The notes beneath the pieces were generated by a model that did not search any database, was not told the DNA's origin, and saw only the letters and a list, made by a program, of their open reading frames with translations. This document shows, one piece after another, positions 59,094 through 63,998 of a stretch of 64,000 bases of DNA. Each line of letters opens with the position of its first letter. Position 1 is the stretch's first letter. Source of the stretch: an uncultured delta proteobacterium (GTDB lineage: Bacteria > Myxococcota_A > Polyangia > Polyangiales > Polyangiaceae); NCBI GenBank assembly GCA_963841435.1, contig CAWJCS010000006.1, positions 1,408,001 through 1,472,000 on the forward strand, written 5' to 3'. Both the position numbers and the translations under genes were made by a program.

Positions 59094-59134
59094 CCAGCAC
59101 CGGATGTATTGCCTTGCCGATCCTGGAGAACGCG

Positions 59135-61108
59135 ATGGACGACTTCGAAAAGGCGGTGCACACGATTCAATTTCTGTCGGCGGACGCCGTCGAGAAGGCG
59201 GGCGCGGGGCACCCCGGGACGCCGATGGCGCTCGCGGGCATCACCGTCAACATTTTCACGCGGTACCTCCGCTACGACCCGACCACGCCCGATTGGCCCA
59301 ACCGTGATCGTTTCGTGCTCTCCTGCGGGCACGCGTCGATGCTGCTCTACTCGGTGTTGCATCTCGCCGGGTACGACCTCCCACTCTCCGAGCTGCAGGC
59401 CTTCCGGCAATGGGGCTCGAAGACGCCGGGACACCCCGAGCACGGCCTAACGCCCGGCGTCGAAACCACGACGGGCCCGCTCGGACAGGGCGTCGGCAAC
59501 GCCGTCGGGTTCGCGCTCGCCAGCAAGCTGGCCGGCGCCAGGCTGAACCAGCCCGGTTCCGAGGTCTTCGACTATCGCGTGTTCGCTCTGGCTTCGGACG
59601 GCGACCTCATGGAGGGCGTTTCGGGCGAGGCCTCGAGCATCGCGGGCCACCTCGGGGTCAACAATCTCGTCGTCGTCTACGACGACAACAAGATCACGAT
59701 CGACGGCAGCACGGACCTCTCCTTCAGCGAGGACGTCGCGAAGCGTTACGAGGCCTACGGCTGGTCCGTCCAGCGCGTCGACGGACATGCGCCCGACCAG
59801 GTTAGAAAGGCCCTCGATGCGGCCGTCGCGCACCGCGGCTCGCCGTCGCTGATCCTCGCGCGCACGATCATCGGCATCGGAGCGCCCACGAAGGCCGGCA
59901 CGAGCAAGGCGCACGGTGCTCCGCTCGGCCGCGAGGAGATCGACGGCGCCAAGCGCGCTTGCGGCTGGCCGCTCGAGCAATTCTTCGTCGCACCGGAAGC
60001 TCGTGCGCTCTTCGCGAAGCGCGCCGCCGAAAATCGTCCGCTCCGCGAGGCGTGGGAGAAGCTCGCGCGTGGGCTCACGGGTGAGCGCGCCGCCCTGTAC
60101 CAGAAGCTCACGACGCGCGCGGTGCCCGACAACCTGTATGCGGAGCTGCTCGCGGTCGCCCGGACACTCAAGCCCGACGCCACGCGCAGCTCCGGCGCCG
60201 CCGTCGAGCAGAAGGCCGCGGCGCTCGTGCCCGCCCTCGTCGGCGGGGCCGCCGACCTCGCGGAGTCCACCAAAACGACCATCAAGGGCTCCCCCGACAT
60301 CAAGCGCGGCGAGTTCGCCGGCCGAAATTTCAATTTCGGCATCCGGGAGCACGGCATGGCAGCCATCCTGAATGGCCTCGCGCTCTCGGGCCTGTTCGTC
60401 CCGTTCGGCTCGAGCTTCCTCATCTTCACCGACTACTGCCGCCCGTCGATCCGCCTGTCCGCGCTGATGGAGCAGCAGGTCATTTACGTCTTCACGCACG
60501 ACTCCGTGTTCCTCGGCGAGGACGGCCCCACTCATCAGCCCGTCGAGCAGCTCGCCTCGCTACGGCTGATCCCGAACCTCGACGTGGTCCGCCCAGCGGA
60601 CGCGCTCGAGTGTGCCGCCGCGTGGACGTACGCACTCACGCGCCGGCACGGCCCCACGCTCATCGCGCTGAGCCGCCACAAGTTGCCCGCGCTCGAGCGC
60701 CCCGACGGCTTCGACACGGCGCGCATGCTCGACGGGGCGTACGTCCTTTCGGACGCCGACAAACCCGAGGTCGTCATGATCGCGACGGGGAGCGAGGTAT
60801 CGGCTGCCGTCGCCGCGAAGAAGCTGCTCGAAGAAAAGGGGCGGCGTGTGCGGATCGTGAGCGCGCCCTGCGTTCAGGCGTTCGAGCGCATGCCGCCCGA
60901 AAAGCGCGCGGCGATGCTGCCGTCGGGGCCACTGCTCGTTTCGGTGGAAGCCGGGCGAACCATGGGGTTTGCGGCGCTGACGGGGCCCTCGGGTCTGAAC
61001 ATCGGTGTCGATCGCTTTGGCGCTTCCGCCCCCTGGGAACGTCTGGCCGTCGAGTTCGGGCTCACGGGCGAAGCCATCGCGGCGCGCGTCCTGGAGCGTC
61101 TCACGTGA
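59135..61108 (+). CDS. tkt: Transketolase
   Basis: GHPG.PM, RDRFVLS.GH, TPGHPE, TTGPLGQG, DGDLMEG, FGIREH, GEDGPTHQP. Confidence 0.97.
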   Translation: MDDFEKAVHTIQFLSADAVEKAGAGHPGTPMALAGITVNIFTRYLRYDPTTPDWPNRDRFVLSCGHASMLLYSVLHLAGYDLPLSELQAFRQWGSKTPGHPEHGLTPGVETTTGPLGQGVGNAVGFALASKLAGARLNQPGSEVFDYRVFALASDGDLMEGVSGEASSIAGHLGVNNLVVVYDDNKITIDGSTDLSFSEDVAKRYEAYGWSVQRVDGHAPDQVRKALDAAVAHRGSPSLILARTIIGIGAPTKAGTSKAHGAPLGREEIDGAKRACGWPLEQFFVAPEARALFAKRAAENRPLREAWEKLARGLTGERAALYQKLTTRAVPDNLYAELLAVARTLKPDATRSSGAAVEQKAAALVPALVGGAADLAESTKTTIKGSPDIKRGEFAGRNFNFGIREHGMAAILNGLALSGLFVPFGSSFLIFTDYCRPSIRLSALMEQQVIYVFTHDSVFLGEDGPTHQPVEQLASLRLIPNLDVVRPADALECAAAWTYALTRRHGPTLIALSRHKLPALERPDGFDTARMLDGAYVLSDADKPEVVMIATGSEVSAAVAAKKLLEEKGRRVRIVSAPCVQAFERMPPEKRAAMLPSGPLLVSVEAGRTMGFAALTGPSGLNIGVDRFGASAPWERLAVEFGLTGEAIAARVLERLT

Positions 61109-61464
61109 CACTGCCCGTCGTGCTCGTTCCTCACCCGCACGTGCGGGTCGAGCAGAGCGTGCTCGGCGGCAGCCCCTACGTCGTCGGCTCGCGCGTCCCC
61201 GTGCGCCGCCTGTTCAGCTTCTTCGAAAGTGGTGCCAGCGTGGAGCGCATTCTCAAGCGCTACCCGCAGCTCGGTGCAGCCAAGGTGCTCGACGCGCTCG
61301 CCTTTGCGCTCGACAATCCCGAGGTGATCGAGGCGGACGCGCGACGCGAGCACGAAATCCTCGCGCGTGCGGGTCACAAGCCCAAAAAGCAGGGCGACGG
61401 TTCTGCGCAGATCGAGCTGCCGTTCGCGTCACCCTCGCGCACGGGCCCGGCGAGCCGAGGCTGA
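61105..61464 (+). CDS. DUF433 domain protein
   Basis: VLGG.P.V.GSRVPV, G.S.E.IL..YP.L....V.DALAF; GTGA overlap with tkt. Confidence 0.85.
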   Translation: MTLPVVLVPHPHVRVEQSVLGGSPYVVGSRVPVRRLFSFFESGASVERILKRYPQLGAAKVLDALAFALDNPEVIEADARREHEILARAGHKPKKQGDGSAQIELPFASPSRTGPASRG

Positions 61465-61552
61465 TTTCGGCTGCCCGGCACCCGAAAAACCGGGCTCAAA
61501 GCGAGACGCCGGCTTTCAACTACTGGATTTAACTGACTTTTCATCGCTTCGA

Positions 61553-61581
61553 TTCACAAGTGCCGCTCTGCCGAGTAGGTT
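61553..61581 (+). promoter_or_regulatory. Sigma70-like promoter for the Cys-rich lipoprotein
   Basis: TTCACA-N17-TAGGTT with an AT-rich upstream tract, then a 5' hairpin and GGAGGAGG RBS. Confidence 0.5.
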
Positions 61582-61636
61582 GCCCCCTCAACCGAGCTGC
61601 CTAACCCAATTGGGGCGGCACGGAGGAGGATTCAAC

Positions 61637-62944
61637 ATGCGTCCCAATCGTGGTCAGAGAGTTGGTGGAGCCGTCATTGCAGCGATGCTTCTCGCGTCGC
61701 CGTTGTTGATGGACTGCGGCAAGAAAGGCGCCGGGGGAGGTCCCGCCATTCCGGGTGCCGACAACCTTCCGGGTGGCGGTGCGCTGCCAGGAGGTTGCCC
61801 CGCCAACATCGCTGACGCCGAGGCCGTTATGTCGGCAAACTTCGGCCTAGAAGGTGAGCTCGAAGGCAAGGTCAAGGCTGCGCTCTCGGCAGGCGCCACG
61901 CTGCAGGGCATCGCCGCGGATCTCGAGGCCGAGGTCGCGATGGCGTGCGGCAACCTGGCAAAGGATCTCGGCGCCACCGACGCCGACCTCGCTCCGAAGG
62001 AAGACGGCCCGGGCAAGAAGGCGGAAGCCGCTTGCATGGCTGCCTCGAAGTTCGTCGGCGATCTCAAGGCGAAGGCCAAGGGCAGCCTCAAGGTCGAGAT
62101 CAAGCCGCCGCGCTGTTCGGCATCCATGAACGCCATGGCCGAATGCGCTGGAAAGTGCGACGCAACCGTGAAACCCGGCTCCGCGAAGGTGGAGTGCGAG
62201 GGTGGCAAGATCAGCGGCGAGTGCTCCGGCAAGTGCGAGGGCGAGTGTGCCGTTCAGGCCGGCGCCAAGTGCGAGGGAAGCTGCAGCGGCAGCTGCACCG
62301 GTGAGTGCTCCGGTGACATCTCCGGCAAGTGTGACGGCACCTGCGAAGGCAAGTGCGACGGCAAGGACACCAAGGGCAAGTGCGCCGGCACCTGCGACGG
62401 TAAGTGCAAGGGCAAGGCCACCGCGAGCTGCAGCGGTACCTGCAAGGGCACCTGCAGTGCCAGCTGCACGGTCCAGGCCAAGGGCGAGTGCAAGGGCGAG
62501 TGCTCCGGCAAGTGCAACGTCGAGATGAAGGCGCCGAAGTGCAGCGGCGAGGTCAAGCCGCCGGAGATGAGCGCCGAGTGCAAGGCGAACTGCAACGCCG
62601 AGGTGAACGCGAAGCTCGAGTGCACCCCGGCTTCGGTCATGGCCAAGGTCGAAGGTTCGGCGGACGCTCAGGCGGCTGCCAAGCTCAAGGCCGCACTCAC
62701 CAAGGACCTGCCCGCCATCCTCAAGGTCTCGATGGGCATGAAGGGCAAGCTCGAGGGCGTGGTCGGCAGCGTGAAGGCCGGCCTCGAGGGCGGCAAAGCA
62801 GCGATCACCTCGGGTGGTGACGCGGCGCTCAAGGTCGGCGCCTGCTTCGCCGCGTCGATTGACGCCCAGGCGAAGGCGGCGGTTTCGATCGACGTGTCGG
62901 TGAAGGCGAGCGCTTCGGCGAGCGCCTCCGCCAGCGCCGGCTGA
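61637..62944 (+). CDS. Cys-rich (CxGx-repeat) probable lipoprotein
   Basis: Strong RBS, signal peptide ending LLMD-C, 33 Cys counted by hand, own terminator. Confidence 0.85.
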   Translation: MRPNRGQRVGGAVIAAMLLASPLLMDCGKKGAGGGPAIPGADNLPGGGALPGGCPANIADAEAVMSANFGLEGELEGKVKAALSAGATLQGIAADLEAEVAMACGNLAKDLGATDADLAPKEDGPGKKAEAACMAASKFVGDLKAKAKGSLKVEIKPPRCSASMNAMAECAGKCDATVKPGSAKVECEGGKISGECSGKCEGECAVQAGAKCEGSCSGSCTGECSGDISGKCDGTCEGKCDGKDTKGKCAGTCDGKCKGKATASCSGTCKGTCSASCTVQAKGECKGECSGKCNVEMKAPKCSGEVKPPEMSAECKANCNAEVNAKLECTPASVMAKVEGSADAQAAAKLKAALTKDLPAILKVSMGMKGKLEGVVGSVKAGLEGGKAAITSGGDAALKVGACFAASIDAQAKAAVSIDVSVKASASASASASAG

Positions 62945-62960
62945 GCCCCACAGCGGTCGT

Positions 62961-63006
62961 ACGGCCCGTTTCGGCGCTCGGCGCCGGAGCGGGCCGTCGG
63001 CTTTTT
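62961..63006 (+). terminator. Intrinsic terminator
   Basis: acggcccgtttcggcgc-tcg-gcgccggagcgggccgt followed by cttttt. Confidence 0.8.
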
Positions 63007-63026
63007 GTGCTCCCCGGGCGGAGGCT

Positions 63027-63998
63027 TCAGCCCGCCACGGAAGCCACGTCGCGGCGGGCGGCCTCGGCCATTTCCTCGACCATCGCTTTGAGCACATCGG
63101 GGTCGGGGCCTTCGAGCATCAGGCGGAGCTTGGGCTCCGTGCCGCTCCAGCGCACGAGCACGCGTCCACCGTCGCCGAGCTTGGCCTCGGCGTCGGCGAT
63201 GCGACGCGTGAGCTCCGCCATCTCCGCGAGGGGGCGGCGCGCCGCGAGCTTCACGCTCTCGAGCACCTGCGGCACGCGCTCCATCGAGCGCGCGAGCTCG
63301 CTGAGCGGGCGCGCCTCACGAAGCATGATGGCGAGCACCTGCAGCGCCGCGACGATGCCGTCGCCCGTGGTGGCGTGCTCGGCGAACACCAGATGCCCCG
63401 ACTGTTCGCCGCCGAACGTGAGGCCGTCACGGCGCATTTCTTCGACGACGTAGCGATCCCCGACGGCCGTCCGCCGTAGCTTCGCTCCCGCCGCTGCGAG
63501 CGCCCGCTCGAGCCCCATGTTGCTCATTACGGTTGCGACGACGACGCCCTTCGCGAGTCGCCCGGCGCGCTGCATGCGCGTGCCGCAGAGCGCCATGACG
63601 GCATCTCCGTCGACGATTTCGCCCCGCTCGTCCACGAAGATCACGCGGTCGGCGTCGCCGTCGAGAGCCACGCCGAGGTGGGCTTTGCGCTTCTTCACTT
63701 CGCCTGCCACGTGCGCCGGATGGAGCGCGCCGCACGCGCGATTGATGTTGAGCCCGTTCGGCCGGCAGCCGATCGCCGTGACCTCCGCACCGAGCTCGGC
63801 GAGCACGGCAGGCGCGACACGGTAGGCGGCGCCGTGCGCCGCATCCACGACGATGTTGAGGCCGTGCAGCGTGAGCTCGCGCGGGAAGGTGCCCTTGGCG
63901 TAAACGACATAGCGCCCGAAGGCGTCGTCGAGCCGCTCGGCGCGTCCGACGCCGCTGCCGCTCGAGCCGAGCCCCACGAGCTTGGGATCGGACATCAA
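63027..63998 (-). CDS. glmM: Phosphoglucosamine mutase, 5'-partial
   Basis: D.AHGA.Y, PNG.NIN..CG, DGDADR, TVMSN.G, VGDRYV, GGEQSGH, TGDG, R.SGTEP. Confidence 0.95.
   Translation of the reverse strand: MMSDPKLVGLGSSGSGVGRAERLDDAFGRYVVYAKGTFPRELTLHGLNIVVDAAHGAAYRVAPAVLAELGAEVTAIGCRPNGLNINRACGALHPAHVAGEVKKRKAHLGVALDGDADRVIFVDERGEIVDGDAVMALCGTRMQRAGRLAKGVVVATVMSNMGLERALAAAGAKLRRTAVGDRYVVEEMRRDGLTFGGEQSGHLVFAEHATTGDGIVAALQVLAIMLREARPLSELARSMERVPQVLESVKLAARRPLAEMAELTRRIADAEAKLGDGGRVLVRWSGTEPKLRLMLEGPDPDVLKAMVEEMAEAARRDVASVAG

Follow-up and report, generated by a model that had tools for sequence, protein, structure and literature searches.

The window analyzed here is a stretch of 64,000 nucleotides of a Polyangiaceae genome, and near its end lies a forward-strand gene (61637..62944) for a 435-amino-acid (435-aa) protein with 33 Cys, which is the subject of this work. 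The 27 gaps between 28 consecutive Cys of this protein, from Cys160 (codon starting at 62114) to Cys329 (codon ending at 62623), read 9,3,12,8,3,3,7,3,3,3,7,3,3,[8],3,3,7,3,3,3,7,3,3,8,12,3,9, an exact palindrome centered on DGKDTKGK (residues 241 to 248). A preliminary description of this DNA had placed a mirror spacing of 28 Cys at 62114..62623 and had counted one probable lipid anchor plus 32 other Cys; translation bears out the spacing, the coordinates, and the total of 33 (C27 at a lipobox-like site and 32 others, which suffice for 16 disulfides). When the same 27 gaps were shuffled 100,000 times, a palindromic run reached at most 21 gaps (in 2 shuffles), and the full 27 never occurred. 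In the inner part of each arm, 3,3,7,3,3,3,7,3,3 is itself palindromic, and what is strictly mirrored in this protein is only the outer 9,3,12 and 12,3,9. Judged from the window protein alone, the core could equally be a direct repeat of period 53, an ambiguity that the homologues remove. Conserved Cys outside the palindrome are C54, C104, C133, and C403.

The features of the gene, with secondary structure as predicted by AlphaFold2 (AF2), and its neighbors are as follows.

61622..61629, forward strand: Shine-Dalgarno-like GGAGGAGG, 7 nt upstream of the ATG at 61637, read from the sequence
61637..62944, forward strand: coding sequence, 435 aa with 33 Cys, ATG start at 61637, stop codon at 62942-62944
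61637..61717, forward strand: signal peptide with atypical lipobox L-M-D-C27-G, C27 being the probable lipid-anchor Cys
61853..62077, forward strand: two long N-terminal helices (residues 73-110 and 127-147) that make up half of the predicted helical-bundle base and carry conserved C104 and C133
62084..62221, forward strand: N-side of the collar, with strands 150-156 and 159-163, helix 164-174 with C160-X9-C170-X3-C174, a connector, and C187 (DSSP on the AF2 model)
62222..62356, forward strand: arm 1 (residues 196-240), 12 C-x-G-x lattice units with 10 Cys and vacancies at A208 and I228
62357..62380, forward strand: tip loop DGKDTKGK (residues 241-248), with a probable two-residue turn K246-G247
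62381..62515, forward strand: arm 2 (residues 249-293), mirroring arm 1; it has 10 Cys and is vacant at A261 and A281
62516..62653, forward strand: C-side of the collar, with C302, a connector, helix 313-325 with C315-X3-C319-X9-C329, and strands 328-330 and 333-339
62666..62935, forward strand: C-terminal pair of long helices (residues 344-391 and 396-433, predicted), with conserved C403, followed by the (SA)n tail
62912-62941, forward strand: low-complexity (Ser-Ala)n tail ending the protein, ...ASASASASASAG; the family consensus ends S-x-S-x-S-A
62961..63007, forward strand: intrinsic-terminator-like hairpin, 17 pairs, 13 of them G-C, then a T-run
59114-61108, forward strand: transketolase, upstream neighbor
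61108-61464, forward strand: DUF433 protein, a small gene between the transketolase gene and the Cys-rich gene
Farther upstream: YceG and HisRS
63027 onward, opposite strand: GlmM, downstream neighbor

Homologues begin to align at residues 1 to 3 of the frame that starts at ATG 61637. The preliminary description had taken this to be a standalone gene with a promoter-like site, a strong ribosome-binding site, and a terminator. The standalone gene, the Shine-Dalgarno-like element, and the 17-bp stem with its T-run were all found; the promoter-like site was not reproduced, as a consensus scan of 61100-63100, limited to sigma-70 type promoters, gave 0 sites. All five scanned neighbors (HisRS, YceG, transketolase, DUF433, and GlmM) are housekeeping genes, and the order transketolase, DUF433, Cys-rich gene is kept in 5 related genomes (L004, L006, L007, L008, and L009). 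Both strands carry long open frames that overlap the gene (one of 416 aa, for instance, at 61847-63097 on the reverse strand), which is usual where DNA has so few stop codons; homologues exist only for the forward frame at 61637.

Family distribution and symmetric gain and loss of cysteines

A word-indexed search yielded at least 1,895 proteins, clustered at 90%, at E <= 0.001 among 8,000 candidates scored, and an exhaustive HMMER search of 50%-identity representatives yielded 821 at E <= 0.001, including 171 at <= 1e-30. The 120 homologues listed, 62 to 86% identical to the window protein, all carry a precomputed match to PF27846, which is named tSAM_targ_Cxxx_rpt in the ESM Atlas and belongs to Pfam 38.1; because one of these 120 is 86% identical, the window protein itself is likely a member. 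Local Pfam and NCBIfam searches gave no match above cut-off: TIGR04114 (tSAM_targ_Cxxx) scored 11.1 bits (E 0.47, residues 212-226; cut-off 20 bits), and Bactofilin PF04519, which is precomputed on some homologues, scored 25.6 bits (E 1.5e-5, residues 244-323; cut-off 27.9 bits). A sequence search of the PDB returned only low-complexity noise (an ARID protein at E 0.001 and eL29 at E 0.1), the ESM Atlas returned only clusters of the family itself, with meaningless automatic names (FliK, keratin-associated), and a literature search of titles and abstracts found no paper on the PF27846/TIGR04114 family or its Cys-ladder architecture.

In contigs representing one genome per species, all 50 loci belong to metagenome-assembled genomes (MAGs) of uncultured Polyangiaceae, Polyangiales, Myxococcales, or Myxococcota, some of which are labeled more broadly or by older names of that lineage (Proteobacteria, delta proteobacterium). 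Matches occur in 56 of 301 sampled genomes of the phylum (the window's own included). Within the window's family, 20 of the 23 other genomes sampled have one; strong matches do not extend beyond the class to which the window belongs, and a single genome has up to 6 matches, some in tandem. Such tandem arrays of paralogs in the Polyangia comprise 2 to 3 copies (G215:C4:269183-271824, G270:C103:10928-13581, and G210:C12:3058489-3061341). The window's genome (7.78 Mb in 6 contigs, 95% complete) carries a second copy at 36% identity; one gene flanking that paralog matches a ParA/Mrp-type ATPase in Pfam, and the other three flanking open reading frames (ORFs) matched nothing. A third, weak match on the reverse strand (L003, G000:C3:768237-768527; E 1.4e-4, 34% identity over residues 199-290, in a 400-aa frame) may represent a further Cxxx-repeat protein that lacks the helical base. 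None of the longer family proteins found was fused to another domain. One relative of 831 aa (P0132) consists of two tandem modules, each with its own perfect palindrome and with different patterns, and the only three found among the longer relatives (P0271-P0273; 789 to 832 aa), each carrying only PF27846, are probably two-module forms of the same kind.

Mirror spacing is a property of the family rather than of one protein. Of the 120 close homologues, 102 are perfectly palindromic. Among the 150 representatives listed, we analyzed the 147 with at least 8 Cys gaps, of which 134 have both outer motifs and 13 are fragments or lack the motifs. Perfect palindromes make up 80 of these 134; another 50 have equal numbers of Cys per arm and differ in only 1 to 3 loop lengths, mostly by one residue; and one is the two-module P0132, in which both modules are perfect. 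Cys counts are thus equal between arms in 130 of the 134. The preliminary description had anticipated that length variants should gain or lose Cys blocks symmetrically in both arms, which is what the 80 plus 50 representatives do. Across Polyangiaceae and related myxobacteria we found ~50 distinct perfectly palindromic gap architectures, a short natural variant being 9 3 12 8 3 3 7 3 3 8 12 3 9 (P0163). Many have arms that are not self-symmetric, such as 3 3 7 3 3 3 3 3 3 [8] 3 3 3 3 3 3 7 3 3 (P0142), 3 3 3 5 3 3 3 3 3 3 [8] 3 3 3 3 3 3 5 3 3 3, two palindromes of 37 gaps, and the palindromes of P0149, P0172, P0258, and P0266, with 29 to 37 gaps. Because such arms are mirrored and not repeated, tandem duplication is excluded as the cause of the palindrome. 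In a set of 308 proteins, whose domains hold 6 to 38 Cys (up to 19 pairs), 242 have arms of identical residue span, and in 285 the two spans differ by no more than 1 residue. Each half contains an odd number of Cys in 80 of these proteins, which rules out pairing confined to one half there.

The arms are built on a lattice of CxGx units. Of 2835 CxxxC middle positions, 2268 are Gly and 537 are Ala, with polar flanks (S, E, K, D, and T). Gaps within the arms are nearly all odd (3, 5, 7, 9, or 11), those of 8 and 12 lying mainly at the base and tip; odd gaps mean even Cys spacing, so the in/out alternation of a beta-strand is never broken. A gap of 7 is a lattice vacancy, that is, one CxGx unit whose Cys has been replaced, and vacancies stand at mirror positions. 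The 223 distinct mirror vacancy pairs are apolar and compensate in volume (A/A 70, I/A 44, F/G 17, A/G 15, F/A 15, I/V 11, and V/A 10), Gly being the partner of 17 of 34 Phe and of 0 of 56 Ile, and this compensation is what two residues touching in a tight core would show. Volume covariation of the middle positions was set aside, being confounded by architecture differences between proteins. In the window protein, two mirror-partner vacancy loops, AVQAGAK (205-211; 62249-62269) and TVQAKGE (278-284; 62468-62488), are alike when both are read from N to C terminus, a likeness that mirror pairing alone does not predict.

Taken together, the paired loss of Cys at mirror positions indicates an out-and-back chain with 14 cross-arm disulfides, a topology that we regard as likely. 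The antiparallel arms in mirror register and the cross-arm bonds proposed in the preliminary description, as opposed to bonds between neighboring Cys or metal sites, are both supported by this symmetric variation: Cys are lost one per arm, and runs of three Cys per arm occur, which argues against Cys4 metal sites and CxxxC neighbor disulfides alike.

Predicted fold of the arms and its rivals

We predicted the structure with AF2 from a 146-sequence alignment. The whole protein reached a predicted local distance difference test score (pLDDT) of 88.0 and a predicted template modeling score (pTM) of 0.81, and the domain alone (residues 148-342) reached a pLDDT of 92.9. The N- and C-terminal helix pairs form a helical bundle in the model, in agreement with the helical base that had been suggested earlier. 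Between bundle and arms lies a small alpha/beta collar whose secondary-structure elements are symmetric about i+j=489, the sum that relates each Cys to its mirror partner. The collar holds C170, C174, C315, and C319 on helices 164-174 and 313-325, and C160 and C329 in the flanking strands. In the arms, strands are predicted at residues 199-206, 211-216, 219-224, 227-232, 235-240, 243-245, [248], 252-258, 261-265, 269-273, 277-284, and 288-293; they are broken by x-G with a period of 8 residues. The arms of about 81 residues envisaged at first are thus too long, since the outer three Cys pairs sit in the alpha/beta base, on or beside the two collar helices, and the periodic beta arms comprise only residues 196-240 and 249-293.

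Fold searches brought up no solved structure resembling the arms. Foldseek against the PDB gave no match at E <= 1e-3 for the whole model or the domain, and its weak top rows (flagellin/FlgL) reflect only the general layout of helices plus insert. In VIA, the whole model showed generic helical-bundle similarity only (Z <= 8.7), and the domain matched 0 of 48,161 chains at Z >= 5. The best domain matches (Z <= 4.8, ~50 aligned residues) cover the collar only; they bridge both of its halves, which means that the flanks of the excursion pack together in the AF2 model. The null result for the domain is no evidence either for or against novelty of the arm fold. That the arm fold is categorically new seems to us possible, at somewhat less than even odds.

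The register of the two arms is not that of the Cys. In the AF2 model, the strand/break patterns of the arms are in phase under i+j=493 and out of phase under the Cys mirror, 489; register 493 places the tip turn at K246-G247, with 245/248 as the closing pair, and lies four residues off 489. Charge covariation points the same way. We aligned 271 distinct arm pairs on the Cys lattice, counted from the tip (effective number of sequences [Neff] 165), and found the strongest mean charge correlation at offset +4, i.e., at i+j=493 (r -0.142; 17 of 22 position pairs negative; z -6.9 versus 200 row shuffles), compared with -0.030 at the mirror (offset 0, 489), -0.069 at offset -2 (487), and -0.079 at offset -6 (483). 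Register 493 in the window protein pairs K239 with D254, E237 with K256, D233 with K260, E223 with K270, and E201 with K292, with no like-charge clash. So the polar faces would pair at 493, and the Cys and their replacements at 489. Within an arm, charge complementarity is beta-like at i/i+2 (-0.135 and -0.174), and charges at i/i+8 are not complementary (+0.067 and +0.046). The tip loops of 8 residues, 104 distinct ones, have Gly at position 7 in 96 cases, D or N at position 4 in 60, and mostly D, K, or N at position 6; a two-residue x-G turn at 246-247 would agree with this conservation. Charge covariation at the base was noisy, and a full covariation analysis on sequences of the same architecture was dropped (Neff only 21).

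We propose a fold in which these two registers coexist. The helix pairs would form the helical-bundle base, and between them the chain would go out and back over residues ~150-340, each Cys of the outgoing arm being disulfide bonded to its mirror Cys on the returning arm (14 bonds). Three outer pairs would staple a beta-beta-alpha/alpha-beta-beta collar, arranged like a twin CX9C/CX3C motif, and ten inner pairs would lie in the two (C-x-G-x)n arms. In the arms, the hairpin would wind into a two-start antiparallel beta-helix, each arm making one turn every 8 residues. The lateral hydrogen-bond neighbors of residue i would be 493-i and 485-i, and residue 489-i would face it at the same height from the opposite side of a very narrow lumen. 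Even-numbered residues (Cys and Gly) would point inward, with disulfides filling the lumen, and odd-numbered polar residues outward. The turn at 246-247 would put C249 beside D244, half a turn after C240 and hence opposite C240; a two-residue turn there gives exactly the observed 8-residue central gap, and a two-start coil demands Cys or Gly/Ala at the inward positions, as observed. A rise of ~0.48 nm per CxGx unit would make the 12-unit arms a rod of ~6 nm, and relatives would range from ~1.5 to 9 nm through paired insertion or loss of units. For the two-start helix as a model of the arms, we see an even chance. In a crude C-alpha helix model, Cys-Cys distances are 6.0 Å across the lumen and 4.95 Å laterally.

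Several other geometries were drawn on paper and rejected. With 6-residue strands and anti-phase breaks, not every mirror Cys pair touches in a planar meander sandwich, in a 16-residue flat two-start solenoid (where only even lattice pairs do), in orthogonal two-layer packing, in nested coils, or in an in-plane ribbon at 491 with diagonal disulfides.

A number of results weigh against the proposed structure. The two-start model predicts contacts at both +4 and -4, and at offset -4 (485) the mean correlation is +0.039, i.e., there is no charge complementarity; the row shuffles behind the covariation statistic, moreover, ignore phylogeny. The crude C-alpha model is strained, with i/i+2 distances of 5.4 to 7.7 Å. 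Taken as a simple ribbon, the AF2 register of 493 sets Cys opposite non-Cys residues, and the double helix that reconciles the two registers is our own inference. Finally, 3 of the 134 representatives carry one unpaired extra Cys, and about a third of the representatives show loop asymmetries of 1 to 3 residues. Setting these against the evidence above, we give the structural reading as a whole a probability of roughly 0.55.

The rival closest to this reading keeps the out-and-back chain and lets the arms form a plain two-stranded beta-hairpin, extended or gently twisted, with directly opposed Cys rungs as in theta-defensins. Mirror spacing, the mirror co-loss of Cys, the even in-arm Cys spacing (which suits one face of a beta-strand), the beta-like i/i+2 charge complementarity, and the want of a compact fold match for the arms would all be expected of such a hairpin, whose arms would make a spike of ~16 nm (25 nm in the preliminary description). 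However, at register 489, where its rungs would lie, the predicted strands and breaks are out of phase and charge complementarity is missing, both being found at 493 instead; the exposed face of a ribbon needs no Gly/Ala at each intermediate position; and the tip loop puts the turn at 246-247 and not at the center of the palindrome, 244-245. We therefore consider the plain hairpin improbable. A fully extended 25-nm spike in particular is unlikely given the 8-residue strand periods, the register of 493 rather than 489, and Gly/Ala at every second inward position, which in the predicted model argue for a coiled, tightly packed rod of ~6 nm.

Could the Cys instead be metal ligands, with both arms jointly forming Fe-S, Zn, or Cu(I) storage sites as in metallothionein- or Csp-like proteins? 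The very high Cys content invites the question, and the helical bundle weakly and generically matches copper storage proteins in VIA (6q6b, Z 6.8; 6zif, Z 6.6), but the Cys lie in the beta arms and not in the Csp-matching helices. The signal peptide, the lipobox-like Cys, and the VKOR matches of the genome imply an oxidizing compartment. The family record also speaks against metal sites: Cys are lost in twos, one per arm, and not in fours; three-Cys runs per arm are common (3 3 7 3 3 7 3 3); and lost pairs are replaced by apolar, volume-matched residues. This leaves metal binding a very slim chance.

A one-start beta-solenoid of the bactofilin or Tenebrio antifreeze type, with CxxxC disulfides in each coil and the palindrome a by-product of the repeats, would account for the short AF2 strands with x-G breaks and for the weak Bactofilin match, which lies under the Pfam cut-off (25.6 versus 27.9 bits) even though PF04519 is precomputed on some homologues. 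Yet in such a solenoid single vacancies per arm at mirror positions would strand unpaired neighbors, and neither the mirrored arms that are not self-symmetric nor the odd Cys number per half in 80 of 308 proteins would be expected. The packing of the N- and C-flanks of the excursion against each other in the AF2 model, the noncomplementary i/i+8 charges, and the empty VIA result at Z >= 5 likewise tell against it, and we hold it to be scarcely probable. Least credible of all is that the protein is a substrate of a radical-SAM or other Cys-modifying enzyme that turns its Cys into thioethers or similar links, as the family name tSAM_targ_Cxxx, carried by PF27846 on all 120 listed close homologues, and the faint TIGR04114 match would have it, for that match is under its 20-bit cut-off, no radical-SAM protein was among the five neighbors scanned or recognized beside the paralog (one ParA/Mrp-type ATPase, three ORFs without a match), a 435-aa exported protein with a folded helical base is no short precursor peptide, and the mirror co-loss of Cys would stay unexplained.

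Probable cell-envelope location and possible function

The window protein has the n- and h-regions of a signal peptide, and we compared what follows them with the lipobox pattern [LVI][ASTVI][GAS]C. The N-terminal Cys is conserved, the commonest motifs among 258 homologues being LMDC (25), LNNC (18), and IVDC (13), and distant family members carry a canonical LAGC/LSGC lipobox. A point against lipidation is that position -1 is Asp, which is atypical, and is D or N in most close homologues; Asp/Asn at -1 may be a lineage-specific lipobox variant in Polyangiaceae. On the strength of these motifs, C27 is probably lipidated. The genome has 2 VKOR matches above cut-off (L015, G000:C3:874117-874542, and L016, G000:C5:1723157-1723477), and DsbB had no match in this 95%-complete assembly, suggesting that periplasmic disulfide formation probably runs through VKOR. 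Lpp (Braun's lipoprotein, PF04728) likewise had no match in the same assembly.

Core-gene synteny, near-universal presence in the Polyangiaceae, the strong Shine-Dalgarno element and terminator, paralogs of multiple lengths, and a lack of enzyme domains together fit an abundant structural envelope protein, and we conclude that the product is probably an exported, lipid-anchored structural protein of the cell envelope. In contigs from soil RNA libraries that carry relatives of at least 85% likeness, 26, 22, and 25 of 30 bins were covered, as against 6 in one DNA run; this is only a hint that family members are transcribed, as it comes with no control stretch and contig depth cannot rank expression. 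No sequencing run contains more than 9% of the sampled words. As to function, to which the neighboring housekeeping genes give no clue, our guess, more likely wrong than right, is a strut or projection that is rigid, of fixed length, and resistant to proteases and denaturation, located in the periplasm or at the cell surface and oxidized by the VKOR-type pathway. We suggest even so, and tentatively, that the family may provide Polyangia with graded rulers or struts of ~1.5 to 9 nm, each an all-L, ribosomally made two-start antiparallel beta-helix with a cystine column in its lumen, standing on a lipid-anchored helical bundle and belonging to a fold class of which no protein has been solved.

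The family is a core gene of the Polyangiaceae, often in multiple copies and probably well expressed, and it is a candidate element of envelope architecture. If the ruler or strut proposal were true, such proteins could set envelope distance in bacteria without Lpp. If mirror pairing is true, this ladder, with 14 rungs in the window protein and as many as 19 pairs in relatives, would far exceed any other natural cystine ladder in length, and the way in which units come and go in both arms alike would amount to a contact map written into indel evolution. If the coiled model is also true, a fold class thought to need D,L-peptides would be within reach of ribosomal proteins and would offer a very stable, length-programmable rod scaffold.

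Comparison with known systems

PF27846 and TIGR04114 are the only curated models that touch this family. They capture the Cxxx repeat, PF27846 being an 18-position repeat model that is silent on mirror symmetry, helical base, and lipidation; membership in TIGR04114 would presumably imply a radical-SAM partner gene nearby, as the family name suggests. Bactofilins are cytoplasmic, Cys-poor proteins that form a one-start right-handed beta-helix. Unlike them, the window protein has a signal peptide, a lipobox-like Cys, and 28 lattice Cys, and its excursion starts and ends at one collar. In granulin/epithelin modules, too, the Cys are spaced palindromically, and short beta elements stack into a rod with disulfides along its axis. 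However, granulins run one way from N to C terminus, with interleaved C1-C3 and C2-C5 bonds, CC doublets, and 12 Cys, and they have no sequence relation to the window protein.

With regard to the arms, the Tenebrio molitor antifreeze protein (TmAFP) is a one-start parallel helix of 12-residue coils (TCT repeat) with disulfides within each coil and Thr-rich ice-binding ranks. As in the proposed arms, the Cys of its x-C-x strands face a very narrow lumen bridged by disulfides, and polar ranks face outward. The window protein differs in its mirror pairs between arms, its 4-residue repeat, its AF2 strand period of 8, and its antiparallel arms. Pairing restricted to a single arm is excluded by the loss of Cys at mirror positions and by the parity of their counts, so the TmAFP type does not fit, and no TmAFP-type chain appeared among the best 50 in VIA or at Z >= 5. 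Gramicidin A is a double-stranded antiparallel beta-helix with ~7 to 8 residues per turn, in which alternating D,L residues turn the side chains out and leave a pore. The proposed arm geometry would be the same, two antiparallel strands about one axis with lateral hydrogen bonds at both edges, and it would accommodate the period of 8 residues together with register 493 and mirror 489; the crude C-alpha model makes it feasible, but covariation gives the second edge (485) no direct support. In contrast to gramicidin, the window chain is ribosomal and all-L, its inward residues are Gly/Ala or Cys, and its lumen would be filled with cystines.

With regard to the Cys pattern, the cyclic cystine ladder of theta-defensins, protegrin, and tachyplesin consists of antiparallel strands with 2 to 3 parallel disulfide rungs at C-x-C within 16 to 18 residues. 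As in those peptides, the Cys of the window protein are mirror placed on two antiparallel strands, and the spacing reads equally both ways. Here, by contrast, there would be 10 rungs at C-x-G-x plus 4 outer pairs inside a 435-aa lipoprotein, and the strand register of 493 is offset from the Cys mirror of 489, which a flat ladder cannot accommodate. The twin CX9C/CX3C hairpins of CHCH and small Tim proteins resemble the mirrored motifs C160-X9-C170-X3-C174 and C315-X3-C319-X9-C329, whose CX3C parts lie on two packed helices within one compact collar in the AF2 model. The window protein, unlike those mitochondrial proteins, is bacterial and exported, and its helices sit in a collar with ~140 residues inserted between them. 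Overall, the arm geometry would come closest to the disulfide-cored beta-helix of the Tenebrio antifreeze protein and to the gramicidin double helix, and the concept as a whole appears closest to disulfide-laddered hairpins such as theta-defensins and to twin CX9C/CX3C helical hairpins.

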